From contig CAVSWU010000003.1 in the NCBI GenBank assembly GCA_963731795.1, forward strand, positions 966,216 to 1,030,215: 64,000 bases of DNA, written 5' to 3'. The notes below the pieces were generated by a model. The model made no database searches. It saw nothing but the letters and a program-made list of their open reading frames with translations, and had not been told where the DNA came from. Positions 22,444 to 53,785 of this stretch are shown piece after piece. Origin of the DNA: an uncultured delta proteobacterium. GTDB lineage: Bacteria > Myxococcota > Myxococcia > Myxococcales > Myxococcaceae. Numbering within the stretch: position 1 is the stretch's first letter; each line of letters opens with the position of its first letter. The translations under genes were made by a program, and so were the position numbers.

Positions 22444-25687
<3,244 letters not shown>

Positions 25688-29588: not shown

Positions 29589-31142
29589 TCATCGCTGATC
29601 GCCTGGGCCGGAGGTGGGCTGGCGCTCAGGCGGAACGATCGGCACGTAGCACGCGCCCTGGTACACGTGGCCGCTGAGTGCCTCGCACCTCTCGCGATCC
29701 AACTTCACCCAACACCCTCCATTGAGGGCAACCAACTGCTTGTGAGGACACCGTCCCTTCGCATCGGGCCGCATCTGCCCCGGCAAGGGCTCGGGGAGCG
29801 GGTCCTCGGCTACCACCTCTCGCGAGGACTCGGGGGCTCCCTCCTCAGAGGCGATCGACGCGGCATCGCCGAGCCCCGCCGTGCCCGCGTCTGGCCGGTC
29901 CTTATCCGCAGCTTCTCTCCGAGCAAAAGAGGGGCTCTCCACGAAATGCCGGGCAACGGACCACCCCGCCCACGTGGCCAGCGCCAGGCCTGCAGCGGCT
30001 GTCGCAAGCCAGAGCCGCCGAGCCCATACCTGCGCTCGGGGCCTGACGCCTCGCGCGGAGACTCTCGCTCCAGCGGGCTCCTCGCTAACCTGTACCTCCC
30101 CCTCGGCCGCGTCCCGAGCGCGGTCGCTCACCTCGGCGGCGGGCACTTCCTCACGAGGCGGCACCGAAGGCCGTGGCAGTTCCTCCGCCACACTCGGCGG
30201 AGTGCTCACCGGCGCGAGGCGCTCCCCGGCCTGATCCAGCAGTTCGGCCAGCTCCGCCGCGCTGCCACGCTCCTCGGGGCGCACCGACAGCATGCGCACA
30301 ATCAACTCCCTCAGCGGCGCAGCCACGCGTGCCTCGTCCCGCAGCCCGGGCGGACACACCACGCTCTCCACCTGCCAGTTCCCTTCCTCATCCTGGCTGG
30401 GCTCGCCAAGCTCCGGGTACTCACCGCTCACCAGCCGGCACGCCGTCACTCCCAGCGCGTACACATCATCCGCGGGGCTGGCGCTGTAGCGCGCCCTGGG
30501 CTCTCGCAGGCTCCGCAGTTCGAGCAGGGCCGCCTCCGGCGAGCGGTAGGCCAGTGTCCCGGGTACCACCGTGGGCGGCGTGAGGGTCGCCGCCTCCGCG
30601 TAGGAGCCCGCACCGAAGTCCGTGAGGATCGCTCGACCGTCCGTGCGCCGCACCAGGATGTTGCCGCCCTTCACGTCCCGGTGCAGGCCCCCTTGCGCAT
30701 GCAGCGCCTCCAGCGCCCGCGCGAGCTGGGCCAGCAGCCTCAGCACCTGCTCACAGCTCGGAGCTTGCCGCAGGGCCCACTCGTACAGCGGCACTCCCTC
30801 CACCCACTGCATCACCAGATACGGATGACGGGTGCCTCCGGGGTGCTGCCACTCTCCCGAGTCCACCAGGCGCGGCACACTCGGATGCTCCACTCGCGAC
30901 AGCAGCGTCGCCTCACGCGCGAACCGCGGATCTCCCGGGTACATGGCCACCTTGAGCGCCACCGGGCCGGCCTGCTCCTGCCCCACTCGCTCCGCCTGAT
31001 ACACCGCTCCCTGGATGCCCTGCCCCGCCCACGCCACCACCCGCCACGGCCCCACCTCCATCCCTGGACAGAGCAAGGCCGGATGCGGCGCGGGGGCGGG
31101 AGGGCTCTTCATGCGGGGCCTCGCGGAAGAAGGGCTGCTCAC
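29589..31142 (-). CDS. serine/threonine protein kinase with TM segment and Cys-rich C-terminal extracytoplasmic domain
   Basis: Hanks motifs 'ALKV', 'HRDVKGGNIL', 'DFG' and 'GTLAYRSPE', a mid TM helix 'LWLATAAAGLALATWAGW', and a C-terminal 6-Cys region. Start is either 31142 or the Met at 31061. Confidence 0.8.
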   Translation of the reverse strand: MSSPSSARPRMKSPPAPAPHPALLCPGMEVGPWRVVAWAGQGIQGAVYQAERVGQEQAGPVALKVAMYPGDPRFAREATLLSRVEHPSVPRLVDSGEWQHPGGTRHPYLVMQWVEGVPLYEWALRQAPSCEQVLRLLAQLARALEALHAQGGLHRDVKGGNILVRRTDGRAILTDFGAGSYAEAATLTPPTVVPGTLAYRSPEAALLELRSLREPRARYSASPADDVYALGVTACRLVSGEYPELGEPSQDEEGNWQVESVVCPPGLRDEARVAAPLRELIVRMLSVRPEERGSAAELAELLDQAGERLAPVSTPPSVAEELPRPSVPPREEVPAAEVSDRARDAAEGEVQVSEEPAGARVSARGVRPRAQVWARRLWLATAAAGLALATWAGWSVARHFVESPSFARREAADKDRPDAGTAGLGDAASIASEEGAPESSREVVAEDPLPEPLPGQMRPDAKGRCPHKQLVALNGGCWVKLDRERCEALSGHVYQGACYVPIVPPERQPTSGPGDQR

Positions 31143-31277
31143 TCTACTCGCGTGCCGCCTCCGTCACGATGAAACAGCAACCTCTCCGGGCACGCGGCGG
31201 TGCTGCGAGTGGGAGCACATCCAGCGCGTGCTCGCGGACTGTATACTCTGGCGGTGCTGCGGATTCGCCAAGAGCAG

Positions 31278-31661
31278 ATGGACGCCTTTCGGGCCGACAG
31301 GGAGCGGAAGTTCGCTCGCGATGTGGCCAGGTACCTGCGTGACCGCTTTCCCGGTGCTGTCGCCGGCCTCGACGATGCCGAACTCGAGCGACGCGGGCTC
31401 GTGGGGCTCGCGAGAGGGCGCAGGCACGGGCTGAGTGACGAGCGGACCCTCCTCTCGTTCATCTCGCTCATGTTCCGATTCGCGCCGAACTTCGATGAGC
31501 ACCCACGCCTCGGAGCAGTGCTGAGGGCGAGCGGAGAGCCCCCCGGGCTCCGATTCCAGAGGATGACCGCGCTGGCGACGGAGGCGGACTGGGAGGAGGT
31601 CCGGCGCAGGCGGGATGAATCGGCCTGGGAGGATGGCACCTGCTCCACCCGGCATCCCTGA
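31278..31661 (+). CDS. small hypothetical helical protein upstream of the large metzincin-like gene
   Basis: Track ORF 31200..31661 has protein-like composition and no frameshift. The start is uncertain (31200 or the Met at 31278) and no homology was recognised. Confidence 0.3.
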   Translation: MDAFRADRERKFARDVARYLRDRFPGAVAGLDDAELERRGLVGLARGRRHGLSDERTLLSFISLMFRFAPNFDEHPRLGAVLRASGEPPGLRFQRMTALATEADWEEVRRRRDESAWEDGTCSTRHP

Positions 31662-31716
31662 TGTGCTGGCACGTGGGTTCCCGTGCCCTGTAACCACCGA
31701 TGTAGAAGGAGGGTGG

Positions 31717-34314
31717 ATGTATCCGCCGAAGCTCCTGTTCAAGGCCTTTCCCGAGGGGAAACCCTCCTCCCTGTCCCTGGAGCAATCCTGCTCACGCGAG
31801 AGCCTCAAGCGGTGCGGCATCACGGGCCTCACCCTGAAGCCTCACTCGGCGGAGGGCCACTTCTTCACGGCCCCCCATTCGCAGCTCGAGCCCGGAGCCG
31901 CGGGGCGGTATCAGCTCGCGCCAGGAGCGGACGAGGGGCTCAAGCTCGGTTGGTCCTTCTCCGGCTCCCAGCACATCCGCTCGGCGGACATCGAGCTCTA
32001 CACTCGCTCGTCGTCCCCCTCCGAGCCGTTCTGGCGGAGGATCCTGCACTGGAAGAACGCGGAGACCCGGAAGGACTCGGGAGAATGTCCCTTCGATGGA
32101 GTGCTGAGCAGCGGAGTGCGGGACGAGGGCGGGCTCGAAATCCTGGATGTGGCGGTGAACGTCTCGAAGGAAATGTTCCCGGCGGGTTGTCTGAGCGTCG
32201 AGCACGCGCCGTATCTGCTCAAGATGACGATCGCTCCCGAACCCGATGTGGCCGTGGAGGTCGGGTCCGCGTGGATATACCTGGACGTCGTGGCGGCGGA
32301 GATCCGGCTCTCCCTGGGTGACGAGAACATGCTGCGCTCGTCTCCCGAGGGGGACAAGGAGCGGGCCATCCTCCGGGAGATGCGGGAGATGGGGTCCTTT
32401 CCAGCGAATGAAGAAAGCCTCGCGAAGGTCCTGCTGCCCAGCAACATCTTCAGCACGAACACCGATGAGTGGCACGAGCTGAACCAGGATGTGCCGTTCG
32501 AGAGGTACAAGGCCGCATGGGGGAACGGGCCGGAGCTTCCCCTCTTCGCGGAGTTCCTCGTGCGCGACTCGAAGGGCAACGCCGTGTCCGCTCCCCGGGC
32601 CGTGGCGGGGTCCCAACTCCTGTGGGACTGGAGCGAGCCCCTCTCGCCGCCACTCAAGCTCAACGGGGGCCGCACGGCCGAAGGGGACGAGGCGCACATC
32701 AACGACTACCTCGAGCGCTACACGAAGGGCAAGGCGCCCTCCTCGGCCTTCTCCAAGGGGAACAACTGTCACGCCGACCATGGTGGAAAGGGGGGCTCGA
32801 GCGATGCGCTGGACCGCGTCCTCTCCCTGGTCTCCCATGAGAGCCGGAGCGGGTTCCCGTTCGAGGTGCGGAGCCCCGCGAACCGGACATGGGCCGCCAT
32901 CAGCCGCATCCAGGGCGAGGGCCCCCATGCCGGCAAGACCGGGGTGATCTTCCAGCCCTCACGCATGGCCGGAGATTCGTACCGGGTGAGCGCCTGCTGG
33001 TGTTACGACAGTGAGGGAACCGGTGTCGGACTGCTCGACGACACCCAGGAGGACATCCCGGTGACCCTCCGTGGGACGAGCGGTACCTTCCAGGTCTGGC
33101 GGCAGCTCCACCTGGTCCAATATGTCGACCAGGCGCTTCGGCCCCTCCAGGTCGTCACGTCAGCACCTTCTCTCCAGACGAGCACTTCCGGCAAAACGCC
33201 GAAGGAGGAGTTCGACGAGCTCGACAAGATGCTGAAGGCCGCCTTCGGCGAAGGTGGCTTCAGTTACGAAGACTGGCTTCCGAGGTGGCTCAAGACCGGG
33301 AAGGATCAGGACCTCATCCTCGGAGAGCTGGAGCTGGATAATGCCATGGGAAAGGCCCAGAGACTTCGGGACCTCCACAACCAACAACAGCTCGAGTCCG
33401 ACCAGAGCCTCCAGCCGTCGCTCCCCTCCGCCAAGACGCCCGAGCCCGCCTGGAAGCGGGAGTTCGATCGGCTCAGCCGGCGCTACGCGCACGCATTCAT
33501 CGATTTGAAGTGCTTCTTCCAAGAGCCCACGTCCATTCAGGGCTTCCACCAGAAGGTCATCACCGCGGTCCAGAGGCTCGGCAGCGATGTCATCTCCGCG
33601 GCGGTGAAGCTCGATGACGAGAGGTGGCTCAAGGGGGCCTACGTCCTGCATTTCCGCAGCTACTCCGATTTCAAGAAGGAGTACCTGAAGGGGTCCGGAG
33701 GCAGGTCGCTCAAGGACCTGGAGCAATACTTCTCCGGGAATGGGCCGAAAGAGAGACAGCGGTGCGGGCCGGGGACCAGCGACCAGGAACTGTGTGAACT
33801 CTACGAGGGGAGCAACAAGGGATGGGCCCAGTGGGTCCTCGAGAGGGTCGTCGAGGAGGATCTCTCGGGGGCGGCGGAGGGCATCTATATCTTCGACCTG
33901 CCGGGCTGCTGCTGCCGAGACCATGAGGAGAATGGCGAGCCGCTGCAGGTGACCATCCTGGGTTTTGCCATGCTCTTCCCCTCGACGAAGGGGAAGGTAG
34001 CAGTGTTCGCCAACCTATGTAGCGTCGAGGACTACGATGATGCCAGGAGGAAGTCCGGCGCGGAGAAGGATGTCGAGCTGAGCATGGGGGTCACCGCGGC
34101 CCATGAGCTCGGGCACAGTCTCTTCCTGGCGCATGCACCGCTCGCCGCGGATGATCGGCCCGAGAATAAAAGTCACACCGCAGGGGTCGAGCCAGACTTC
34201 CACCACTCGGAGATGCTGACCTGCCTCATGGGCTACCACGCGAACAACCAGTACTTCTGTGGTCTGTGCCTGCTCCGGCTCAGGGGGTGGTCGCGACAGA
34301 AGTTGAAGTCTTGA
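31717..34314 (+). CDS. large (865-aa) hypothetical protein with a C-terminal matrixin-like zinc-metallopeptidase motif
   Basis: A strong AGGAGGG RBS lies before ATG 31717. There is no signal peptide. The motif 'AAHELGHSLFLAHA' (HExxHxxxxxH, compare matrixin 'HEFGHSLGLSHS') is followed by a possible Met-turn 'CLMGY'. A CCC/CxxC-rich segment 'LPGCCCRDHEENG' is present. GC is ~60-62%. Confidence 0.55.
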   Translation: MYPPKLLFKAFPEGKPSSLSLEQSCSRESLKRCGITGLTLKPHSAEGHFFTAPHSQLEPGAAGRYQLAPGADEGLKLGWSFSGSQHIRSADIELYTRSSSPSEPFWRRILHWKNAETRKDSGECPFDGVLSSGVRDEGGLEILDVAVNVSKEMFPAGCLSVEHAPYLLKMTIAPEPDVAVEVGSAWIYLDVVAAEIRLSLGDENMLRSSPEGDKERAILREMREMGSFPANEESLAKVLLPSNIFSTNTDEWHELNQDVPFERYKAAWGNGPELPLFAEFLVRDSKGNAVSAPRAVAGSQLLWDWSEPLSPPLKLNGGRTAEGDEAHINDYLERYTKGKAPSSAFSKGNNCHADHGGKGGSSDALDRVLSLVSHESRSGFPFEVRSPANRTWAAISRIQGEGPHAGKTGVIFQPSRMAGDSYRVSACWCYDSEGTGVGLLDDTQEDIPVTLRGTSGTFQVWRQLHLVQYVDQALRPLQVVTSAPSLQTSTSGKTPKEEFDELDKMLKAAFGEGGFSYEDWLPRWLKTGKDQDLILGELELDNAMGKAQRLRDLHNQQQLESDQSLQPSLPSAKTPEPAWKREFDRLSRRYAHAFIDLKCFFQEPTSIQGFHQKVITAVQRLGSDVISAAVKLDDERWLKGAYVLHFRSYSDFKKEYLKGSGGRSLKDLEQYFSGNGPKERQRCGPGTSDQELCELYEGSNKGWAQWVLERVVEEDLSGAAEGIYIFDLPGCCCRDHEENGEPLQVTILGFAMLFPSTKGKVAVFANLCSVEDYDDARRKSGAEKDVELSMGVTAAHELGHSLFLAHAPLAADDRPENKSHTAGVEPDFHHSEMLTCLMGYHANNQYFCGLCLLRLRGWSRQKLKS

Positions 34315-39682: not shown

Positions 39683-39835
39683 ACGAGGGGGGTGGGCTCA
39701 AGCATTGACCCCAGGCGCCAAAGAATTGACCGGGCGTGCCATGAGCAGGCGCGGGGGCGAGCGAGCAGGCGCTGAGCGCGCTGCAACAACGTGAAGACAT
39801 TGCAATTCAGCATCTCTTCCGCGAGGAAATCCCCC

Positions 39836-41788
39836 ATGCCTCATTCCTCTCCCTCGGCCCAGGGAGACCTCACTCCGCAGAAGGCGGGTGGCGCTCTCCG
39901 GCTGTTCCGCTCCTGGCTTCTGAAGCGGCTCGATGCCCTGCTCTCGGAGCCCCTGCGCATGGCCCCGGCCTCGGAGCTCACCCGCGCCCGGGTGCTGGCC
40001 GGCACCACCACCCTCTTCCTCGTGTTCAACGTGCTGTATCTCCTCGTCCTCGAGGCAACGCCCCACCCCTCGCTCTGGATCGCCCCTGGGCTCGGCGCCC
40101 TCGTGGGCTTTGTGGGCGCACTGCTCCTGCTGCGGAGGGCCACCTCCCCCATCCGCCCGGCGATGCTCCTGTGCATGGCCATCATGGTGGGGAGCGTGGG
40201 CACCATGCTCACCTACCGGAACGCGTACTCCATCACCCACGCCTCGACCGTGCTGATCCCCGCGCTCGCGGTGTACCTGATGGGACCCCGCTTGGGCCTG
40301 GTCGCAGCGCTCCTCCAGATCCTGCTCATGGGGCTTGTCCTCCTGGTCGTCTATGTCCACCTCGGTATCCGCGCGCCCTCTTCCAGCGCTGAGATCATCT
40401 GGACGCTGTACTTCGCCGCGGCCGCCGCCATCATCGGCGTCTGGTTGCTGGGCGCGCTGCACAGCACCGCACGCGACGCGGCCCAGGCGACCCTGGAGCG
40501 AACCCTGAAGGAGCTGCACGACAGCGAGCACAAGCTCAGCAGCCTCTTCGAGAACACCGACGACCTGGCCTGCTCGCTCGATACCGAAGGGCGCATCCTC
40601 ATCGCCAACACAGCCTTGAAGCAGGCCTTCGCCAGACGCTTCGGCCAGGAGCCCGCGGTAGGCCAGCCCCTCCTGGCCGGCGCCGAGCCCGCGATCCAGG
40701 AGTTGTGGGCCAGGCGGTTCCATCAGGTGCTCCAGGGCCGGCGCTTGAAGTTCGAGTTCGAGTACATGCTGGCGGATCGCCGCGTCGTGATGGAGACCTC
40801 CATGGGCCCCATCCGCGACGAGAACGGGCAACCCGCGGGCATGGTCCTCTTCGCCCGCGACATCACGGCTCGCAAGGAGGCCGAGACCCGGATGGGCGAG
40901 ATGCACCGCACGCTGGTGGATGTGTCGCGGCAGGCGGGCATGGCGGAGATCGCCACCGGCGTGCTCCACAACGTGGGCAACGCCCTGAACAGCGTCAACA
41001 TCTCGGCCTCCCTCATCGCCGAGGGGCTGCGCAAGCAGCGAGTGTCAGGCCTGGCCCGGGCCGCCACGCTGCTCCAGGAGCACTCCGCCGACCTGGCTTC
41101 CTTCCTCACCACCGATCCGCGAGGCCAGCAGCTCCCGGCCTATCTGCAGACCCTCTCAAAGGGGCAGCGCGAGGAGCAGGAGGCGCTCCTCTCTGAGGCG
41201 AGCTCTCTCACCTCGGGCATCGAGCACATCAAGTCCATCATCAGCACGCAGCAGAAGCATGCCCGGACTGTCGGCGCGGTGGAGTCGCTCTCGGTGCCGC
41301 AGCTCATCGACGAGGCGATGCGCCTGCACGCCATCTCCTTCGAGCGCTTGAACATCGCCGTCGAGCGCGACTACGGGGATGTGCCACCCATCGTCGCGGA
41401 TCGGCACAAGCTGCTGCAGATCCTCCTCAACCTGATGACCAATGCGCGCCATGCGCTGGTGAGCGGTGATCAGCAGGAGAAGCGCCTGCGGATCCGCGTC
41501 CGGCTCTCCCCGGATGGCGGGCAGCTGCTCGTCGAGGTCTCCGACAATGGCATGGGTATCGCGCCGGAGCATCTGCCGCGCATCTTCACGCAGGGCTTCA
41601 CGACCAAGAAAGAGGGGCACGGGTTCGGCCTGCACATCAGCGCCCTGGCCGCCATGGAGATGAAGGGTCGGCTCACCTGCACGAGTCAGGGGCTCGGGCA
41701 GGGTGCCACCTTCACGCTCGAGCTGCCGCTCGCGGACAGCCCGGCCAGCAGCCATGGTGGTGCTGCACGCGAGGACGCTCCCGCGTAG
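39836..41788 (+). CDS. sensor histidine kinase (polytopic N-terminal membrane domain, PAS, HisKA, HATPase_c)
   Basis: 5-6 TM helices, PAS ('[23 protein letters not shown]'), H-box '[15 protein letters not shown]', N and G boxes ('[11 protein letters not shown]', 'DNGMGI', 'GHGFGL'). The start is at the Met following a GAGGAAA RBS. Confidence 0.8.
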
Positions 41789-41837: not shown

Positions 41838-42566
41838 TCACCAGCTCAGCTCCGCGGGGGTCAGCTTGCGGGTGTTGTGCTCGATGCTGACAATGCGCCC
41901 ATCCGCGACGCGGATGATGCGGTCCGCCATCTTCGCGATGGGGGCGTTGTGGGTGATGACCGCGGTGGTGGTGCCCAGCTCGGTGTTGATGCGCGCCAGG
42001 GTGTCGAGGACGAGCTTGCCGGTGGCGTAGTCCAGCGCGCCCGTGGGCTCGTCGCACAGGAGCAGATCCGGGCGCTTGGCCACCGCGCGCGCGATGGCGA
42101 TGCGCTGCTGCTCGCCGCCGGAGAGCTGCGCGGGGAAGTGATCCATCCTCGCGCCGAGCCCTACCCTCTCCAGCGCATCCTCCGGCTTCAGGGGGTGCTC
42201 GGCGATCTCCGTCACCAGCGCGACGTTCTCCCGGGCGGTGAGGCTGGGGATGAGGTTGTAGAACTGGAAGACGAAGCCGACGTGTTCGCGGCGGTAGCGG
42301 GTGAGCTCGCGCTCATCGGCGCGGGCCAGATCATGGTCGCGGTAGGAGATCTCTCCGGCCGTCGGCACGTCGAGCCCCCCGATGATGTTGAGGAGCGTGG
42401 ACTTTCCGCTGCCCGACGGCCCGAGCAGGACGACGAACTCGCCCTCATACAAGTCCAGGTCCACTCCCCGCAGGGCGTGCACCTCCACCTCTCCCATGCG
42501 GTAGATCTTGGTGAGGCCGCGCGCCACGAGCACGGCACGCTGGGGCTCCGGGAGCGAAGTCGCCAT
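41838..42566 (-). CDS. ABC transporter ATP-binding protein (LolD/MacB-type), no adjacent permease
   Basis: Walker A 'GPSGSGKST', signature '[14 protein letters not shown]', Walker B '[12 protein letters not shown]', H-loop 'ITHN'. Confidence 0.8.
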
Positions 42567-42677
42567 GGACAGGCATGGTTTGGCATCCTCCCCCACCCTG
42601 GCATCGGCCCAGAGGGCAGGTGCTGGTGCTCTACCCGCCCTGCTCCCTTCCTAGGGCGGGAGTGCGCTCTGGCCGGG

Positions 42678-42710
42678 GGGTGACTGGAGCCACCACCCGG
42701 GTGACTGGAG
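42678..42710 (+). promoter_or_regulatory. tandem 12-bp direct repeats GGGTGACTGGAG (x2, 21-bp periodicity): candidate enhancer-binding-protein site
   Basis: Exact repeats ~100-130 bp upstream of the sigma54 promoter at 42807, the usual enhancer distance. Confidence 0.3.
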
Positions 42711-42806
42711 TCTCGCGGCGCCCTGCCTCGGAAGGCGGCCCGCGTGGTGGTGACTCGAATCTCTCCGGCCTCGGTTCCCAGGGGTTCTGCCCCAGGGAGC
42801 GAGCAC

Positions 42807-42822
42807 TGGCACACCTCCTGCT
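42807..42822 (+). promoter_or_regulatory. sigma54 promoter TGGCAC-N6-TGCT (shared extended motif TGGCACACCTCCTGCTCT)
   Basis: Perfect -24 TGGCAC and a -12 GC at the canonical spacing, ~65 nt upstream of ATG 42887, which has an AGGAG RBS. Confidence 0.45.
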
Positions 42823-42886
42823 CTGAGGTGTCTCCGTCACTCACCAACGCTCTCACCCCACGGAGAGCCACCCCCAGGAGCCCGCC

Positions 42887-44119
42887 ATGACGACCGCCAT
42901 CGCCAACCCCCCCGCCCCCCGCCTCACCCGCGTGAACTCCGAGCCCCTGCCGAACGTCGCCCGGCCCGAGCTGCAGCGCACCAACACCGCTCCCGCGGCG
43001 TTGAGCTCGCCCGCGGCCCAGGCGAAGCCCACTTCGACGAGCCTCCCCTCGAAGGTGGCGGACGTCTTCTCCAAGGCGGGCTCCAAGGTGAGCGGCTGGC
43101 ACGGCAATGCCGTCTCCCAGGCCACCTCCGACGCTCAGGCCTCTGGCGGAAGCGTGCTGAGCAAGCTGAAGGCGGGCGCGGGCCTGGGCAGTGGAATCCA
43201 GGGCATCGTGTCCAACAGCCAGGGACTGGCCAACGCCATCAAGAACCATGAGGGCGGCCAGGCCATCGCCGCCAACGCACTCGGGCTGACCCGCGGCGTG
43301 CTGGGCACGGCGAAGGGCGCCCTCGACACGGCCGCCGCCATCGAGTCCACCCTGGGGCTGCGCAAGGTGGGCCAGGCCGCCAAGGACGCCATCGGTGTGC
43401 CGGGCAAGCTGGGCCAGGCCATCACCAGCGCTGTCTCCGAGGCGGTGCACAACGGCAAGCCGCTGCGCGACGTGGACGTCCTGTCCTCTATCGGCAAGTC
43501 CCAGGGCACGTGGAGCAGCGTCAAGAACTCCGTCCAGATGGCGGTCGCCGACAAGCTCCGCTCCGCCCACTTCGAGAACGCGGCCAACAAGATCGAGAAC
43601 CACGTCTCCGAGAAGGGCCGCAAGGCCGCGCAGGAGCTCGCCGCCGGTGAGAAGGGCGTCGGCAAGGCCATCACCGAGGCGGGTGGCACGGCCGCGAGCA
43701 CGGCGGGCAAGGCCGCTCACGGTATCGAGGAGGCGGTGAAGGGAGGCAAGGCGGCGGACTCGGCCATCCACGCGGCCAAGGGCGCCGAGGAGGCCCTCAA
43801 GGTGGGCGCCAAGGGCGCGGGGACCGCGGCGCGGCTGGCGGGCCGCTTCGCGCCGGGCCTCAACATCGCCATGGCGGGCGTGGACACCGCCATCGCCGCG
43901 CGCACCCTGAGCGATCCCAAGGCGAGCGTCGCCGCCAAGGTGACGTCCAGCATCACCGCCGCGGGCTCCGTCGTCGCCGCCACCAACATCCCGATCGTCT
44001 CCCAGGTGGGCGCGGCGGTGTCGGCGGGCTCCTCCATCGCCGGCGCGGTGGTGGAGAACGCCGGGAAGATCAAGGACGGCTTCAAGAAGCTCGGCAACAA
44101 GCTCAAGAGCTTCTTCTAG
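42887..44119 (+). CDS. Ala/Gly/Lys-rich, Cys-free hypothetical protein with a C-terminal ~55-aa hydrophobic hairpin
   Basis: 410 aa with a strong RBS and no signal peptide. It has no Cys or Trp-rich core, and a C-terminal hydrophobic stretch ('GVDTAIAARTLSDPKASVAAKVTSSITAAGSVVAATNIPIVSQVGAAVSAGSSIAGAVV'). Confidence 0.6.
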   Translation: MTTAIANPPAPRLTRVNSEPLPNVARPELQRTNTAPAALSSPAAQAKPTSTSLPSKVADVFSKAGSKVSGWHGNAVSQATSDAQASGGSVLSKLKAGAGLGSGIQGIVSNSQGLANAIKNHEGGQAIAANALGLTRGVLGTAKGALDTAAAIESTLGLRKVGQAAKDAIGVPGKLGQAITSAVSEAVHNGKPLRDVDVLSSIGKSQGTWSSVKNSVQMAVADKLRSAHFENAANKIENHVSEKGRKAAQELAAGEKGVGKAITEAGGTAASTAGKAAHGIEEAVKGGKAADSAIHAAKGAEEALKVGAKGAGTAARLAGRFAPGLNIAMAGVDTAIAARTLSDPKASVAAKVTSSITAAGSVVAATNIPIVSQVGAAVSAGSSIAGAVVENAGKIKDGFKKLGNKLKSFF

Positions 44120-44155
44120 CCCCGGACCGCTCCACCCCTTCCCGAGGACTCCACC

Positions 44156-45173
44156 ATGAACCCCATCGAAGTGACCGAGCTGGGCGAGCAGACAGGACTT
44201 CCCGAGGTGCAGGCACCGTCGCTGGAGGGGCTCTCCGTCACCCTCCCCGCCCCCGAGGGCTTCACCTCGGCTCAGGTCCAGCAGCGCTTCCTGGAGCTGG
44301 CCCGCGCCCACGCCACCGAGCGCTACCGCGGTCCCTGCGGAGCGGATCTCCTCGGGAGACGAGGTGCTGCTGGACATCGCGGGCTACAGCCATGGCCGCC
44401 TCATCCCGTTCAGCATCCGCACGGGCGTGTGGCTCGCTCTGGAGCCCGAGCCGATGCTGCCCGGCCTGTACGAGGCGCTCGTCGACCGCAAGCCCAACGA
44501 GGGCCTCGTGGTGGACATCACCCTGCCCCCGGAGTACCCCCTGCCGTCGCTGCGCGGCTGCCCCGCGCGCTTCCTGGTCCACATCCAGGCCGCGCGCGAG
44601 GTGACGTACCCATCGCTGGAGAGCCCGGAGTTCCTCCAGGCTTTCGGCCGAGGCCAGACGGTGGAGGAGGCCACGCGCAGCGTCGTCGCTCAGATGGTGG
44701 ACGAGGCCGCTCAGGTCCTCCTGCTCCAGGGCCAGCAGCGGGTGCTGGACGAGGTGGCCTCTCGCACCCAGGTGCGGATCCCCTCCGAGCTCATCGACGA
44801 GGAGATCCGCCGGTGCTGGAGCGAGAGCGAGGGCCGCTCCGTCCGGGAGCTGAACTTCTCCGAGCAGGAGCAGCGGGAGTCGCTCGACACCTGGCTGAAG
44901 GATGACGCGACCCGGCGCGAGGTGGAGCGGCGGCTGCGGCTGGCCCTGGCCCTGGGCGCCATCTGCAAGCGGGAGGGACTCACCCTCACCCCGGAGCGGG
45001 TGGAGAAGCTGCTCCAGGAGCGCGCCTCGGCCGCCGGGCTGACGCTGGAGGAGGTGACGGAGTCCCTGCGCGCCGAGCCACAGCACCTGGCGCGCATCGA
45101 CCAGGTGGCGTGGCACCTCCTGGTGGTCGACTACGTCATGAGCCGGGCGCAGCTCCGCTTCGAGCCGTCCTGA
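44156..45173 (+). pseudogene. trigger-factor-like protein (FKBP-type PPIase-like plus C-terminal helical domain), one frameshift
   Basis: Frame change at ~44335 between 'ARAHATERY' and 'SGDEVLLDIAGYSHGRLIPFS'. The downstream domain architecture resembles the Tig PPIase and C-terminal arms. Length minus 1 gives 339 codons. Confidence 0.5.
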
Positions 45174-45287
45174 GCCCCGCCGGGTGGTGACGGCCGTCAC
45201 CAGTTCAGCGATGGCCGTCACCAGGCCGAGGCCCCCCGTCACCCGCCCGTGCCTCTCGAGCCCCCGCGAGAGGACGGGCAAACACCT

Positions 45288-45303
45288 TGGCATACCTCCT
45301 GCT
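45288..45303 (+). promoter_or_regulatory. sigma54 promoter TGGCAT-N6-TGCT (TGGCATACCTCCTGCTCT, 17/18 identical to the site at 42807)
   Basis: Lies in the 170-bp gap before ATG 45343, ~40 nt upstream. Confidence 0.4.
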
Positions 45304-45342
45304 CTACCCCTGGCTGCCCCCCTTCCTTCGGAGCTCTCCATC

Positions 45343-46281
45343 ATGGCCCTCTCCCCCCTCTCCAAGTCCTCGTTCTCCAGCCCCTCCACCCTGGCCATCC
45401 CGAGCGCCGAGCCGATCTCCGCCCAGTCACGATCCTTGCCGGGCCGCATGGATTCGCAGCAGAGCAGTCCCCTGCGGAAGCTCCTTATGAGCGACGGCTT
45501 CGACTCGCCGATGGGCGCGACGAAGGCGGGCGGTGTGGAGGCGGCGGTGCGGATGCTCACGCAGGTGGCCGACCTGCTGGCCAGGTCCGCGCGCATGCTG
45601 GGCAGCGAGCTCGGTACGGGCAGCCAGCCCGTGTCTGGCGCGAGCCCTGTGGGGAAGAGCGCGGTGCCGGAGCTGGGCGGCGCGCAGGGCGGCGTGCCGG
45701 ACCTGGGCACCCCTCAGAGCGCCCCGGCGAAGGGCGGGCCGAAGGGCGAGCGGACGATGACCTTCACCAACGATGGCAACTCGCCCATGACCATTCAGTT
45801 CACGCCGAACGCCGGTGAGAAGGCGATCGAGCCTCGGACCCTGAAGCCGGGCGAGACCCAGACCGTGGAGTTCCCCGACGGCTGGTCCGGCAACTTCCGC
45901 AGCACGGCCGGGGACGGGAAGGCGGCCACGCTCGGCGAGGTCAAGTTCAACGGAGGCGGGAACCAGACCTACTACGACGTGAGCTACATCGAGGGAAACA
46001 ACGCGGCGATGACCATCCAGCCGGAGAACGGCGGCCGCAAGTCCGGCACGCTCGACAACCTGCTGGCGTCGGCCCCGGACTCCATCAAGGCGAAGGACGG
46101 CAGCGGCAACGCCTACGGCATCAAGAAGAGCACCACGTCCAACGTGCAGGATTCCTCGGTGGTGGACTACTACCGGCAGAAGGTCGGCGCCGACCAGGGC
46201 TACGTCATCCCCACCGATGACGCCAGCACGCTGGGATCGGGCGACAGCCACCTGTCCGTGCACCTGAAGAACCTGACCTGA
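45343..46281 (+). CDS. hypothetical protein with a Cys-free thaumatin-like C-terminal beta domain
   Basis: GGAGC RBS. The C-terminal 'TFTNDGNSPMTIQF...GWSGNFRS...GEVKFNGGGNQTYYDVSYIEGNNAAM' follows the thaumatin-like motif order but without the disulfide Cys. There is no obvious signal peptide. Confidence 0.5.
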   Translation: MALSPLSKSSFSSPSTLAIPSAEPISAQSRSLPGRMDSQQSSPLRKLLMSDGFDSPMGATKAGGVEAAVRMLTQVADLLARSARMLGSELGTGSQPVSGASPVGKSAVPELGGAQGGVPDLGTPQSAPAKGGPKGERTMTFTNDGNSPMTIQFTPNAGEKAIEPRTLKPGETQTVEFPDGWSGNFRSTAGDGKAATLGEVKFNGGGNQTYYDVSYIEGNNAAMTIQPENGGRKSGTLDNLLASAPDSIKAKDGSGNAYGIKKSTTSNVQDSSVVDYYRQKVGADQGYVIPTDDASTLGSGDSHLSVHLKNLT

Positions 46282-46306
46282 GAACCGGGAAGCACTCCCC
46301 GCCGCC

Positions 46307-46322
46307 TGGCCCGCCTCTTGCT
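46307..46322 (+). promoter_or_regulatory. sigma54 promoter TGGCCC-N6-TGCT (TGGCCCGCCTCTTGCTCT, 15/18 to the 42807 site)
   Basis: Lies in the 80-bp gap, ~39 nt upstream of ATG 46361. Confidence 0.35.
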
Positions 46323-46360
46323 CTAAAGAGGCGCGTACCCACCCGTAAGAGGCACTCCCC

Positions 46361-47533
46361 ATGAGCGTTCGATTGGCACAGGCGGCGATTCCCCATACCG
46401 GCGCAGCGGTTCACGCCCCCAAGGCAGAGCCGAAGCGGGAGCAGGAGAAGCCCGGAGCCAGCAAGGCGTCCTCCGGGGGGGGCTCCGCGGCGAAGTCCGT
46501 GGCCAGCGGCAAGAGCGGAGGTGCCCAGGGAGCGCGGCAGCAGGAAGGGGCGGAGAACGGAGCCCAGCTCGGGGCACACACGGGTGGGGCAGACAGCCTC
46601 GCCGACACGCACGAGCCCCAGGCCCGGAGCCGGTTCAGCGTCATCCAGGGCGAGGGAGCCCACTCCACGCCGCAGGCGCAGGAGCAGGCGGCGCGCCCGG
46701 CTCCCCGGTTGGCGACGGCGCCGGAACTCCCGCAGGAGCACAAGGCGGAGGGCCGCGAGGGTTCTGGCTCCCGACAGGAGGTGCTCGAGGGCCGCGCGAG
46801 GCTGCGTGCCGCGCTGCTGGAGCGGCTCGCCCAGGGCATGGCAGATGTCGAGGAGCGGCTGAGCCAGTTCCTGAAGGCCCCGGGCAAGCTGGGCGTCGTC
46901 AACCTGTCCCTGGTGCTCAGCGAGAGCTCCATCACGTACGAGCTGTGGCAGGAGCCGAGCACCGTCCCCGAGCGTCGGGCTCGCATGGCGCTGACGCTGG
47001 GGCTCTCCGCGGAGGTGGAGGATGCCTCGCTGCTGCGGACGCTGATGGCCGAGGTGCATGAGGCCTTCATCGCCTTCCGGGCCAGCAGCTCCGGCCGAGA
47101 GTCCCTGCAGCGGTACGAGCAGGTGCTGCGCGGCTACGAGGCGGCGAAGGTGCTGCCCGTCGTGCCCGGCCACGACACGGGCCCCATGCTGGCCGAGCTC
47201 GCGCGGGTGGGGCTCACGCACGAGGCGGACTTCTCCCGCTCGCTGCTGGTGAACCCGCTGCTCCTCGCGGTGGGGCTCACCGCCGAGGAGGGTTCAGAAA
47301 CCCAGGTGATGATCGCGGGCCTGAGCGTGGCGCAGCTCGGCACGCTCGTGGCGCAGCTGCGCCAGGTCAACCCACGGCTCACCAACCACCAGGTGTGCCG
47401 GCTCCTGCTGCGCGCCACCACCGAACCGAAGAAGACCCTCCGCAAGTGCCTGGGCCAGGCCGAGCTGGAGCGGGTGCTGGAGTCCGCGTACCAGTTGCTG
47501 CGACTCCAGGTCTTCGAGCTGTTCTTCGTCTGA
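46361..47533 (+). CDS. hypothetical protein (disordered Gly/Ser/Ala-rich N-terminus, helical C-terminal domain)
   Basis: 390-aa intact ORF with GC3-rich coding signature. It is the last gene of the co-directional cluster. Confidence 0.5.
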   Translation: MSVRLAQAAIPHTGAAVHAPKAEPKREQEKPGASKASSGGGSAAKSVASGKSGGAQGARQQEGAENGAQLGAHTGGADSLADTHEPQARSRFSVIQGEGAHSTPQAQEQAARPAPRLATAPELPQEHKAEGREGSGSRQEVLEGRARLRAALLERLAQGMADVEERLSQFLKAPGKLGVVNLSLVLSESSITYELWQEPSTVPERRARMALTLGLSAEVEDASLLRTLMAEVHEAFIAFRASSSGRESLQRYEQVLRGYEAAKVLPVVPGHDTGPMLAELARVGLTHEADFSRSLLVNPLLLAVGLTAEEGSETQVMIAGLSVAQLGTLVAQLRQVNPRLTNHQVCRLLLRATTEPKKTLRKCLGQAELERVLESAYQLLRLQVFELFFV

Positions 47534-47573
47534 GTCACGCCCACCGGAGGTGGCCCGGTGGGCGAGCGATTCC

Positions 47574-48779
47574 TCAGCTCAGCGCGGCGACGAAGTCCTT
47601 CATCCGCGCCAGGCCCTTCTGGATCACCTCGCGCGAGGTGGCGAAGCTCAGCCGCAGGTAGCCCTCCGCTCCGAAGGGGGCTCCCGGCATCACCGCCACC
47701 CGGAAGTCGTCCAGGAGGATCTCGGACAGCCGCGACGAGGTGCCCACCGGCGTCGCCCTTGTACGAGCGCTTCAGCAGGCCCTGCACGTTGGGGAACACG
47801 TAGAACGCACCCTCGGGCGTGCGGCACCGCACTCCGTCCAGCGCGTTGAGCCCCGAGACGATCAGATCCCGGCGCGCGTGGAACTCCTCCACCATCTTGC
47901 CGATGAAGTCCGTCGGCCCCTTCAGCGCCGCCAGCGCCCGCCTTCTGCGCGATGGACGAGGGGTTGGACGTCGACTGGTCCTGGATCATCTGCATGCCCG
48001 GCGATGAGCGGCTTCGGCCCCGCCGCGTACCCCAGGCGCCAGCCCGTCATCGAGTACGCCTTGCTCATCCCGTTGACCACGACCAGCCGAGGCACCAGGT
48101 CCGGCGCCACGTTGGCGATGTTCAGGAACTGGCCCGCGTAGAGCAGCTTCTCGTAGATGTCGTCGCTGACGATCAGGCAGTCGTGCCCGCGCAGCGCCGC
48201 GGCGATGCCCTCCAGCGCGGCCCGCGAGAACACGGCGCCGCGTGGGGTTGCTGGGGCTGTTGAGCATGATGGCCCGCGTGCGCGGGGTGAGCGCGCGGCG
48301 GATGGCCTCCGGATCCGGCGCGAAGCCGTTCTCCTCGCGCGTCTCCACGATGACCGGGGCGCCCGCCGGCCAGCAGCACCATGTCCGGGTAGCTCACCCA
48401 GTACGGCGAGAGGATGATCACCTCGTCGCCCTCGTTCAGCAGCGCCTGGAAGATGTTGTAGAGCGAGTGCTTGGCGCCCACGGACACCAGCACCTGATCC
48501 GGCGCGTAGGTGAGCTGGTTGTCGCGCTGGAGCTTGTCGCAGATGGCCTCGCGCAGCTCCGGGATGCCCGCCGTCGGCGTGTACTTGGTGAAGCCCGCCT
48601 TCATGGCGTCGACGGCGGCCTGCTTGATGAACTCGGGCGTGTCGAAGTCCGGCTCGCCTGCGACGAAGCCCACCACGTCCACGCCCTGCGCCGCGAGCGC
48701 CTTGGCCGGGCGTTGAGGGCCAGGGTCGGGGACGGCTTGATGGCTTTGATGCGCTGTGCCAATTGCATGCCCGGTTGCT
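47574..48779 (-). pseudogene. aspartate/aromatic aminotransferase (class I PLP-dependent), ~6 frameshifts
   Basis: Conserved blocks appear in successive frames: 'AQGVDVVGFVAGEPDFDTPEFIK', 'SPSNPTG', 'MSKAYSMTGWRLGYAAGP' (PLP Lys), 'MQMIQDQSTSNPSSIAQKA', 'MVEEFHARRDLIV...' and 'RLSFATSREVIQKGLARMKDFVAALS*'. The frame steps 2>1>0>2>1>0, consistent with repeated +1 insertions. Confidence 0.75.
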
Positions 48780-48819
48780 ACCGCGAGGACGCCCGGGCGG
48801 ACAAGCACTACGAGCTGCA

Positions 48820-50965
<2,146 letters not shown>

Positions 50966-51049: not shown

Positions 51050-52090
51050 TCAGTGCACCTCGCCCACGTGGGCGTAGGTCTCGCTCTCGATCTGGATGGT
51101 GGTGTGATCGATGCCGAACCGATCGAACAGCTCGTGCTTCACCGCCGAGAGGATCTCGTCGTTGTTGCAGGCCATCGGCGTTCGACCACCACCAGGTGCA
51201 CCGAGAGCGCGTACAGCCCGCTGGAGATGGTCCACACGTGCAGATCGTGCACCGCCGCTCACCGCCCTGGACCTTCATCAGCAGGATCTGCGCACCGGCC
51301 TCCATGTCCACGTGCGCGGGCACCGCCTCCAGCAGCACGTCCACCGCGTCGCGCACCAGCCGGAGCGAGCCCACCACGATCACCACCGAGATGAGCACCG
51401 AGATGAGCGGGTCCACCACGTACCAGCCCGTGAGCGCCATGATCGCCCGCGCGCCACGAGCACGCCCACGCTGGACAGCGTGTCCCCCAGCACGTGCAGG
51501 AACGCCCCGCGCACGTTGAGCGAGTGCGCGCGGTGCAGGAAGCGCCAGCGCGCGCCAGGTTCGCCACCAGGCCCACCGCGGCCACCACCGCCATGGGCCC
51601 CAGGTCCACCGGCGCCGGGGTGCGGAAGCGCTCCCAGGCCTCCACGAGGATCACCGCGGTGATCCCCAGCAGCAGCACGCCGTTGAACAGCGCGCTGAGG
51701 ATCTCCATCCGGTAGTAGCCGTAGGTCTTCTTGACGGTTCGCCGGCTTGCCCGAGAACCACAGCGCCAGCAGGCTCAGCGCCAGCGCGGACACGTCCGTC
51801 AGCATGTGGCCGGCGTCGGACATCAACGCCAGCGAGTTGGTGAGGTAGCCGCCCACCGCCTCGGCCAGGGCGATGGTGGCCGTGAGGATCAGCGCGAACA
51901 GCAGCCGGTTGCGATCCTTGCGCCGCTCGTCCGCCAGGTTGGTCGGCCTCCGAGGCGGGTGCCCGTGCCCATGCCCGTGCCCATGCCTATGGCCGTGCCC
52001 ATGATCATGGTCGTGATCGTGGCCCGAATGATCATCTCCGCCGCTGTGGGCCTGCCTCGATCCGCCACGGGTATGCGCCGATGTAGTCAC
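51050..52090 (-). pseudogene. cation diffusion facilitator (CzcD-like) transporter with His-rich N-terminus, three or more frameshifts
   Basis: His-rich 'HDHDHDHGHGHRHGHGHGHGH', TM blocks ('LTNSLALMSDAGHMLTD', 'RMEILSALFNGVLLLGITAVIL', 'LHVLGDTLSSVGVLVA') and a C-terminal 'HDLHVW'-like region ending 'FGIDHTTIQIESETYAHVGEVH*' lie across four frames. Confidence 0.7.

Positions 52091-52204: not shown

Positions 52205-53785
<1,581 letters not shown>

Follow-up and report, generated by a model that had tools for sequence, protein, structure and literature searches.

Regulons of the NtrC family, such as glnAp2 with NtrC and nifH with NifA, combine a -24/-12 promoter with tandem dyads that lie ~60-170 bp upstream in two-helical-turn phasing, and they are driven at a distance by an activator with an AAA+ domain containing the GAFTGA motif and a Fis-type helix-turn-helix (HTH) domain. 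Here, we describe a predicted sigma-54 regulon of this layout, starting from a cluster of four genes (g1-g4) in a 64-kb stretch of contig CAVSWU010000003.1 from an uncultured member of the Myxococcaceae (hereafter, the window; 68.5% G+C, with codon statistics typical of myxobacteria). All of the above features have counterparts in this system, including action at a distance, which we propose for the promoter of g4. Unlike in NtrC-family regulons, the input domain of the candidate activator is of the FHA type and not a receiver, which would imply Ser/Thr phosphorylation rather than a histidine kinase, the predicted enhancer is the dyad TGGTGAC-N4-GTCACCA, and the targets are lineage-specific proteins rather than nitrogen genes. 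The same combination of FHA, sigma-54 AAA+, and HTH domains, within the same clade and with an adjacent Ser/Thr kinase, is found in the FHA-domain enhancer-binding proteins of Myxococcus xanthus, of which those studied, reportedly by Jelsbak, Givskov and Kaiser in 2005, are linked to fruiting-body development. The neighborhood of MXAN_0116, which encodes the candidate activator in M. xanthus, differs from these in having no developmental regulation.

For the set of targets, a parallel is provided by the Hrp regulon of Pseudomonas syringae, in which HrpR/HrpS and sigma-54 control the production of harpins and of the lytic transglycosylases HrpH/HopP1, which are secreted by the type III secretion system (T3SS). 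Both are dispersed sets under the control of sigma-54 and an enhancer-binding protein, and both include Gly-rich, Cys-free helical proteins, lytic transglycosylases, and proteases, with N-termini that tend to have an aliphatic residue at position 3 or 4, no early acidic residues, and a high Ser/Pro content; the products are secreted in the Hrp case, whereas both this control and export are predictions here. The two also differ in that sigma-54 is predicted to act directly at every target here but through an extracytoplasmic function sigma factor in Hrp, and in that we find no linked T3SS genes, class I chaperones, or harpin sequence homology. A literature search returned no paper describing the dyad TGGTGAC-N4-GTCACCA, in agreement with an original prediction, made from the DNA alone, that this system had not been described before. 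The regulatory layout is of a known, NtrC-like type, and the interest lies in an effector hypothesis that becomes testable.

Sigma-54 promoters and a dyad enhancer

When at most one mismatch is allowed, the extended motif TGGCNNNCCTCYTGCTCT has exactly three matches in the window, compared to 0.08 expected from shuffled sequences, and none of 100 shuffles gave three. These matches are P1 (TGGCACACCTCCTGCTCT, 42807-42824, + strand), with TGGCAC as the -24 element, CTGCT as the -12 element, and a predicted transcription start at ~42832; P3 (TGGCATACCTCCTGCTCT, 45288-45305, + strand), with a predicted start at ~45313; and P4 (TGGCCCGCCTCTTGCTCT, 46307-46324, + strand), with a predicted start at ~46332. 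All three are intergenic and co-oriented with g1, g3, and g4, respectively, and the ATG of each of these genes has a Shine-Dalgarno sequence in front. Between the last base of the 18-mer and the ATG there are 62, 37, and 36 nt, respectively, which revises the range of 39-65 nt given originally. When compared to TGGCAC-N5-TTGCW, the three promoters have 1-2 mismatches over the 11 specified bases, with the GG and GC 10 bp apart. This generic pattern is not itself enriched in the window (26 matches versus 26 expected), so that it is the extended motif, together with where it is placed and how it is conserved, that carries the signal.

Conservation is seen upstream of g1. The upstream regions of g1 orthologues were aligned from nine genomes, among them Hyalangium minutum, two strains of Archangium gephyra, A. 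violaceum, two Archangium metagenome-assembled genomes (MAGs), a metagenomic contig, and Stigmatella; amid diverged flanks, TGGCAC..CC...TGCT and an enhancer block are essentially the sole invariant parts. The same promoter and enhancer also precede the g3 orthologue in Vitiosangium (L049). Outside of this system, a copy identical to TGGCACACCTCCTGCTCT is found 57-59 nt upstream of nifH, a classical sigma-54 target, in three unrelated deltaproteobacterial MAGs (L006 5798; L019 7345, - strand; L047 5927), and because the exact 18-mer serves as the nifH promoter in all three, its spacer sequence seems to be a preferred form of the sigma-54 promoter among deltaproteobacteria. Neither a sigma-70-like promoter nor an intrinsic terminator was found in 42400-47800. 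With the extended motif far above expectation and conserved across genera, the predicted set of three near-identical sigma-54 promoters with correct GG/GC spacing holds up, and we take the three 18-mers to be real sigma-54 promoters as judged from sequence. On balance, the cluster would then consist of three transcription units, g1-g2, g3, and g4, each with its own predicted sigma-54 promoter.

Upstream of P1, GGGTGACTGGAG occurs in exactly two copies, at 42678 and 42699, which are 21 bp apart. These 12-bp direct repeats had been proposed to form a tandem-repeat enhancer; the repeats and their spacing are confirmed, but they are the left halves of 18-bp imperfect palindromes, and the predicted enhancer is instead the dyad TG(G/A)TGAC-N4-GTCA(C/T)CA. 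Site 1a (GGGTGACTGGAGCCACCA, 42678-42695, + strand) departs from TGGTGAC-N4-GTCACCA at 2 positions, which makes it an imperfect dyad, and aligns to the enhancer block that is invariant upstream of g1, while site 1b (GGGTGACTGGAGTCTCGC, 42699-42716, + strand), 21 bp from 1a, has an exact left half and a degenerate right half, and a further half-site, 1c (TGGTGACTCGAATCTCTC), is located at 42748-42765 (+ strand). Upstream of P3, site 3a (TGGTGACGGCCGTCACCA, 45185-45202, + strand) is a perfect palindrome that was previously overlooked, and half-site 3b (45206-45223, + strand), 21 bp from 3a, has the right half GTCACCA at 45217-45223. When as many as 2 mismatches are tolerated, the dyad has 2 matches in the window, whereas 0.16 are expected. 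Tandem dyads 60-200 bp upstream of the -24 element are found at P1 and P3 and not at P4, such that the proposal of an upstream enhancer is supported by the sequence at the first two promoters.

To place these sites in context, 21 regulon promoters were gathered from 14 loci. Dyads are present at 20 of them, with 1-3 at each promoter, usually 20 bp apart (20-21) and centered 63-173 bp upstream of the TGG; the sole promoter without a dyad is P4 of the window. At the level of sequence, promoter and enhancer are observed to co-occur and to be conserved. The g4 homologues in Vitiosangium, an Archangium MAG, and Melittangium likewise have TGG-N9-TTGC 45-55 nt before the ATG and no proximal dyad, yet each lies within ~1.2 kb of a dyad cluster, and we therefore read the g4 promoters as candidates for activation at a distance.

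Several further features of these promoter regions were observed. Most genomes have a semi-conserved TTCCC-N2-3-GGGAA element between the enhancer and the -24 element of the g1 promoter (alignment A3, columns ~255-275; ~42775-42795 in the window), which may be a site for a bending protein or a co-regulator. Inverted repeats of 7 bp overlap the -12 elements of P1 (ACACCTC/GAGGTGT, 42811-42829) and P4 (GCCTCTT/AAGAGGC, 46313-46332), and neither these repeats nor the corresponding hairpins are kept in the orthologous promoters. Insulation against read-through transcripts by an anti-Shine-Dalgarno sequence, an idea taken from bioRxiv 10.1101/086108, was considered for the CT-rich CCTCC promoter core and rejected, as the read-through leaders fold no more stably than shuffled sequences (z = -0.68, +1.39, and -0.51). 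Other reasonable -24/-12 matches, at 51768 (- strand), 54787 (- strand), and 15198 (+ strand), are found near a PocR-type activator gene and elsewhere; none has the extended motif or the dyad, and they may be the PocR-type activator's own targets. Rfam gave no RNA family in the window, and Tandem Repeats Finder gave nothing relevant there.

Products of the cluster and members of the regulon

The first gene, g1 (42887-44119, + strand), encodes a 410-aa, Ala/Gly-rich, Cys-free, all-helical protein with a disordered N-terminus, which can also be described as a low-complexity Ala/Gly/Lys-rich helical protein. Profile searches gave no family match, in keeping with its earlier description as an Ala/Gly-rich, Cys-free protein without a recognizable function. 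The g1 family is defined by an invariant C-terminal motif, RFxPGxN...ATNIPxVSQxG, and has ~263 cluster representatives among 1.84 billion proteins.

The second gene, g2 (44156-45173, + strand), was originally called trigger-factor-like, and the profile matches agree. It matches PF05698, the trigger factor C-terminal chaperone domain, at 1.6e-16, and aligns both to residues 112-417 of E. coli trigger factor and to the isolated PPIase domain. Its match to TIGR00115 covers positions 102-407 with 127.9 bits, which is below the equivalog cut-off of 180.2, and as the alignment starts at profile position 102, g2 is without the N-terminal ribosome-binding domain. The g2 open reading frame (ORF) is broken by a 1-nt frameshift, an extra C in the CCC run at 44333-44335. 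A short-read assembly of the same or a near-identical strain, with an identical g1, has an intact g2 of 338 aa that is 1 nt shorter, and two other genes in the window, carB and an aminotransferase gene, also look split into overlapping ORFs (22707-24786 and 47134-48950). Given the intact copy and these other split genes, the g2 frameshift is probably an assembly error; the split genes suggest an indel-prone, long-read assembly rather than real pseudogenes. With a gap of 36 nt to g1 and no promoter between the two, g2 is probably co-transcribed with g1, which it adjoins in every genome examined, including H. minutum, where it has decayed.

We interpret g2 as a predicted dedicated chaperone of g1. 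Trigger factor paralogues of the PceT/RdhT type are dedicated chaperones of reductive dehalogenases, and g2 is comparable to them as a trigger factor without a ribosome-binding domain encoded next to a single presumptive client. Unlike in the PceT/RdhT case, this client would be g1 rather than a Tat-exported enzyme, and no twin-arginine motif is present.

The third gene, g3 (45343-46281, + strand), encodes a 312-aa protein in which the N-terminal module, disordered and rich in Ser/Pro, carries a DGFD motif and is followed by a thaumatin-like domain. Its match to PF00314 is significant but partial (30.6 bits versus a gathering score of 27.4, over profile positions 75-138 only), it matches thaumatin-like proteins in the PDB at 2e-07, and it has no cysteines, all of which is consistent with the Cys-free thaumatin-like protein proposed earlier. 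The match includes the acidic-cleft positions of the thaumatin core as found in PR-5 proteins. Unlike PR-5 proteins, g3 has 0 cysteines instead of 16, and with no N-terminal hydrophobic region or signal peptide, it has neither their disulfide framework nor their secretion signal.

The fourth gene, g4 (46361-47533, + strand), encodes a 390-aa protein that had been described as helical and uncharacterized. The latter description stands; residues 1-131 are disordered, whereas residues 132-390 are modeled as an alpha/beta, subtilisin-like domain in which ~150 of 260 residues align. This extent of alignment and the absence of a Pfam S8 match set g4 apart from subtilisin-like pseudoproteases such as CspC. 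A match to S8 by hhalign spans only 32 columns and is not significant, and a search of PDB sequences with the g4 profile gave only spurious Fis matches. At the position equivalent to Ser221, the family has S, T, N, or E, and the catalytic Ser is thus not conserved. Together, these observations suggest that g4 is probably a non-catalytic protein with a subtilisin fold. The cluster would thereby contribute three new protein families, namely the g1 C-terminal domain, Cys-free bacterial thaumatin-like proteins, and a subtilisin-fold pseudoenzyme.

Across Hyalangium, Archangium, Vitiosangium, Melittangium, Stigmatella, and Myxococcus, the combination of enhancer and promoter stands in front of at least 12 protein families. 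In addition to g1 and g3, the targets include an Asp f 4-like protein, Gly/Gln-rich proteins, a C39-like peptidase, and several unknown proteins, as well as two types of SLT lytic transglycosylase and an M4 pro-protease with an FTP/PepSY propeptide. The SLT gene of M. xanthus, MXAN_0114, carries TGGCACACCTGCTGCT and dyad half-sites. The original prediction of a dedicated four-gene module does not survive this comparison, since the gene order is not conserved and only the g1-g2 pair is fixed. The g4 gene comes after g2 in one metagenomic contig and before g3 in Vitiosangium, and it lies beside the activator gene in Melittangium. Apart from a deletion remnant in one Archangium MAG, the synteny map has g3 nowhere but in the window and in Vitiosangium. 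Accordingly, we read the system as a regulon that is conserved across the suborder Cystobacterineae and dispersed rather than organized as a four-gene operon.

The regulon loci are also mosaic and decaying (L001 9232-9582; L023 4754-4860; L003 10331-10393 and 3796-4581): there is a g2 remnant in H. minutum, a 3' remnant of g3 stands straight after its promoter in an Archangium MAG, and one contig has a copy of g4 without the disordered N-terminus or the promoter, behind a terminator-like hairpin and with an ISL3 transposase nearby. Divergent from MXAN_0114 is MXAN_0113 (L068 13571-15235), which encodes a 554-aa protein with VipA-like and VipB-like regions, the components of the type VI secretion system sheath, and is located away from the main type VI secretion cluster of M. 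xanthus.

A candidate activator and Ser/Thr kinase

Genes for an activator with an FHA-AAA+(GAFTGA)-HTH architecture adjoin dyad-bearing targets in H. minutum, a Hyalangium-like metagenomic contig, Melittangium boletus, and M. xanthus. A Ser/Thr kinase gene is adjacent to the activator gene in all four of these genomes, the M. xanthus pair being MXAN_0116 (activator) and MXAN_0117 (kinase). The activator's HTH is nearly identical across genera, which matches the conservation of the dyad. For the genome of the window, a possible orthologue of the activator is P0155, which is 80% identical. From this synteny, the FHA activator and the Ser/Thr kinase of the MXAN_0116/0117 family are likely to be the regulator pair.

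We propose that a TPR-containing Ser/Thr kinase of the MXAN_0117 family signals to the FHA domain of the MXAN_0116-family activator via phospho-threonine recognition. The activator, which in this genome would be encoded outside the window, may then bind tandem TG(G/A)TGAC-N4-GTCA(C/T)CA dyads that are 20-21 bp apart and centered 63-173 bp upstream of the -24 element, oligomerize, and remodel sigma-54 RNA polymerase at TGGCAC-N5-CTGCT, with g4 being served by an enhancer 1.1 kb away. If this is true, the system provides a defined enhancer sequence together with a candidate kinase-activator pair, and it adds a case of Ser/Thr-kinase signaling, rather than a two-component system, feeding a sigma-54 enhancer.

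Possible export and function of the products

The regulon proteins share features at their N-termini. A hydrophobic region of the Sec type is absent from all 17 proteins examined, whose N-termini are rich in S/T/P and whose Cys content is 0-2. When the N-termini of 18 regulon families are compared with those of 83 neighboring genes, an aliphatic residue is found at position 3 in 14 families (versus 11 neighbors), acidic residues are absent from the first 12 positions in 16 (versus 30), and an M-x-[IVL]-x-[SPN]-[IVL] start is found in 11 (versus 0). A D[GS]F[DE] motif with an amphipathic helix behind it recurs in g3 and the Asp f 4-like protein as well as in the C39 peptidases and SLT. The SLT, M4 (with its FTP/PepSY propeptide), and thaumatin domains act outside of the cytoplasm, and the presence of enzymes for peptidoglycan, glucan, and extracellular protein without signal peptides points to a shared non-Sec export route. 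From this domain content and these N-terminal features, we infer that the products are non-Sec exported antagonistic or lytic proteins and thus candidate effectors of prey lysis.

The explanation that we consider somewhat more probable than not is therefore an FHA-activator sigma-54 regulon of non-Sec exported proteins used against other cells. Within this explanation, the helical, Ala/Gly-rich g1, with its conserved hydrophobic C-terminal domain, would be held soluble by the chaperone g2; g3 would be a Cys-free thaumatin-like protein that binds glucan; and g4 would contribute a subtilisin-fold protein that is probably non-catalytic. Members encoded elsewhere would include lytic transglycosylases along with a C39-like peptidase, an M4 protease, and an Asp f 4-like protein. 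If true, it yields a computable rule (dyad, sigma-54 promoter, and N-terminal signature) that lists the regulon in any Cystobacterineae genome, and the lytic effectors of contact-dependent predation would gain their first concrete candidates, MXAN_0114 and MXAN_0115 among them. It would also bear on how M. xanthus lyses prey after Kil-mediated killing and on what the T3SS* exports.

Several observations weigh against this explanation. On the regulatory side, P4 has no dyad within 260 bp, and its nearest enhancer is 1.1 kb upstream; the g1-g2 pair of Myxococcus sp. SDU36 is without a sigma-54 promoter, such that regulon membership varies by lineage; and no FHA activator gene is present in the window, while the several close paralogues per genome make the exact copy uncertain. 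As for the products, no structural or sequence relative of known function was found for g1, and its C-terminal domain is hydrophobic but under the transmembrane threshold. As for export, the six-residue motif at the N-terminus is a post hoc definition, neither the disorder nor the composition of the N-termini points to secretion specifically, and no secretion-system genes flank any locus examined.

A more specific version involves the needleless T3SS*, which is required for prey lysis and for which no effectors are known; both the T3SS* and the Kil system are confined to Cystobacterineae. In this version, the regulon would encode T3SS* substrates, namely SLT, the C39-like peptidase, the M4 protease, the thaumatin-like and Asp f 4-like proteins, g1, and g4. 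The export signal would be M-x-[IVL]-x-[SPN]-[IVL], an S/P-rich stretch, and then D[GS]F[DE], and the circuit of Ser/Thr kinase, FHA activator, and sigma-54 would be the inducing pathway. The T3SS-like N-terminal features are enriched relative to neighboring genes but are not specific to T3SS, and sct genes are absent both from the window and from all of the 16-21 kb loci examined. The link is attractive but speculative, and we hold it to be rather unlikely.

Expression and literature data were consulted for the M. xanthus genes. MXAN_0114-0117 show flat expression over a 96-h developmental time course, which lends no support to the developmental role originally suggested. MXAN_0114 is among the listed endogenous lytic transglycosylases of M. 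xanthus, and MXAN_0115 has a value of -2.4 in a list in PMC5857379 for which the underlying comparison could not be identified. A predation transcriptome (PMC9548883) has no entry for these genes, and a literature search returned no paper mentioning MXAN_0115-0117.

The alternative that fares best keeps the same regulation but has the products act on the producer, in envelope remodeling or stress protection, with g1 as an LEA- or phasin-like protein rather than an exported weapon. Lytic transglycosylases and peptidases do also serve autolytic remodeling, MXAN_0114 being one of the endogenous enzymes just mentioned, and the low-complexity helical composition of g1 as well as the lack of linkage to secretion genes would fit. 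However, these enzymes must still leave the cytoplasm, yet they have no Sec signal, the thaumatin-like and Asp f 4-like domains and the M4 pro-protease have no obvious self-directed substrate, and expression is flat during sporulation and development. We thus regard self-directed action as rather unlikely.

Less plausible still is a local four-gene module for development or stress under a PocR-domain sigma-54 activator (52205-53785) and/or a PAS histidine kinase (39791-41788), both of which had been linked to the cluster by the original prediction. In favor of this, the activator, with its sensory, AAA+, and HTH domains, is encoded 4.7 kb downstream of the cluster and the kinase just upstream. 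Neither gene accompanies the cluster in any of the six relatives and contigs compared (H. minutum, A. gephyra, the metagenomic contig, Stigmatella, Melittangium, and Myxococcus), however, and the HTH recognition helix of the PocR-type activator is unlike that of the FHA activator, which co-localizes with the enhancer elsewhere and has no receiver domain for a histidine kinase. As the four genes are also not a conserved unit and MXAN_0114-0117 are not developmentally regulated, we judge local control of this kind to be improbable. A possible point in its favor is that a 61.5%-identical homologue of the PAS kinase (L033 4-1212) is found in A. gephyra PVMSAZ, 4.8 kb upstream of the gene for a Gly/Gln-rich protein that is another member of the regulon; this proximity could be coincidence, old synteny, or a functional link.

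Finally, generic -24/-12 matches do occur at chance density in this GC-rich window, but it is highly implausible that the three 18-mers arose by chance or are relics, inactive as promoters, and that the genes are read from unrecognized sigma-70-type promoters, given the excess of the extended motif (3 versus 0.08) with every copy correctly placed, its invariance across genera amid diverged flanks, its identity to nifH promoters, the dyads at 20/21 promoters, and the lack of any sigma-70-like site across the cluster.

Elsewhere in the window, a 915-aa ORF at 31567-34314 has strong coding statistics, 18 cysteines, and no Pfam match, and it adjoins a Ser/Thr kinase gene on the - strand (29589-31163).

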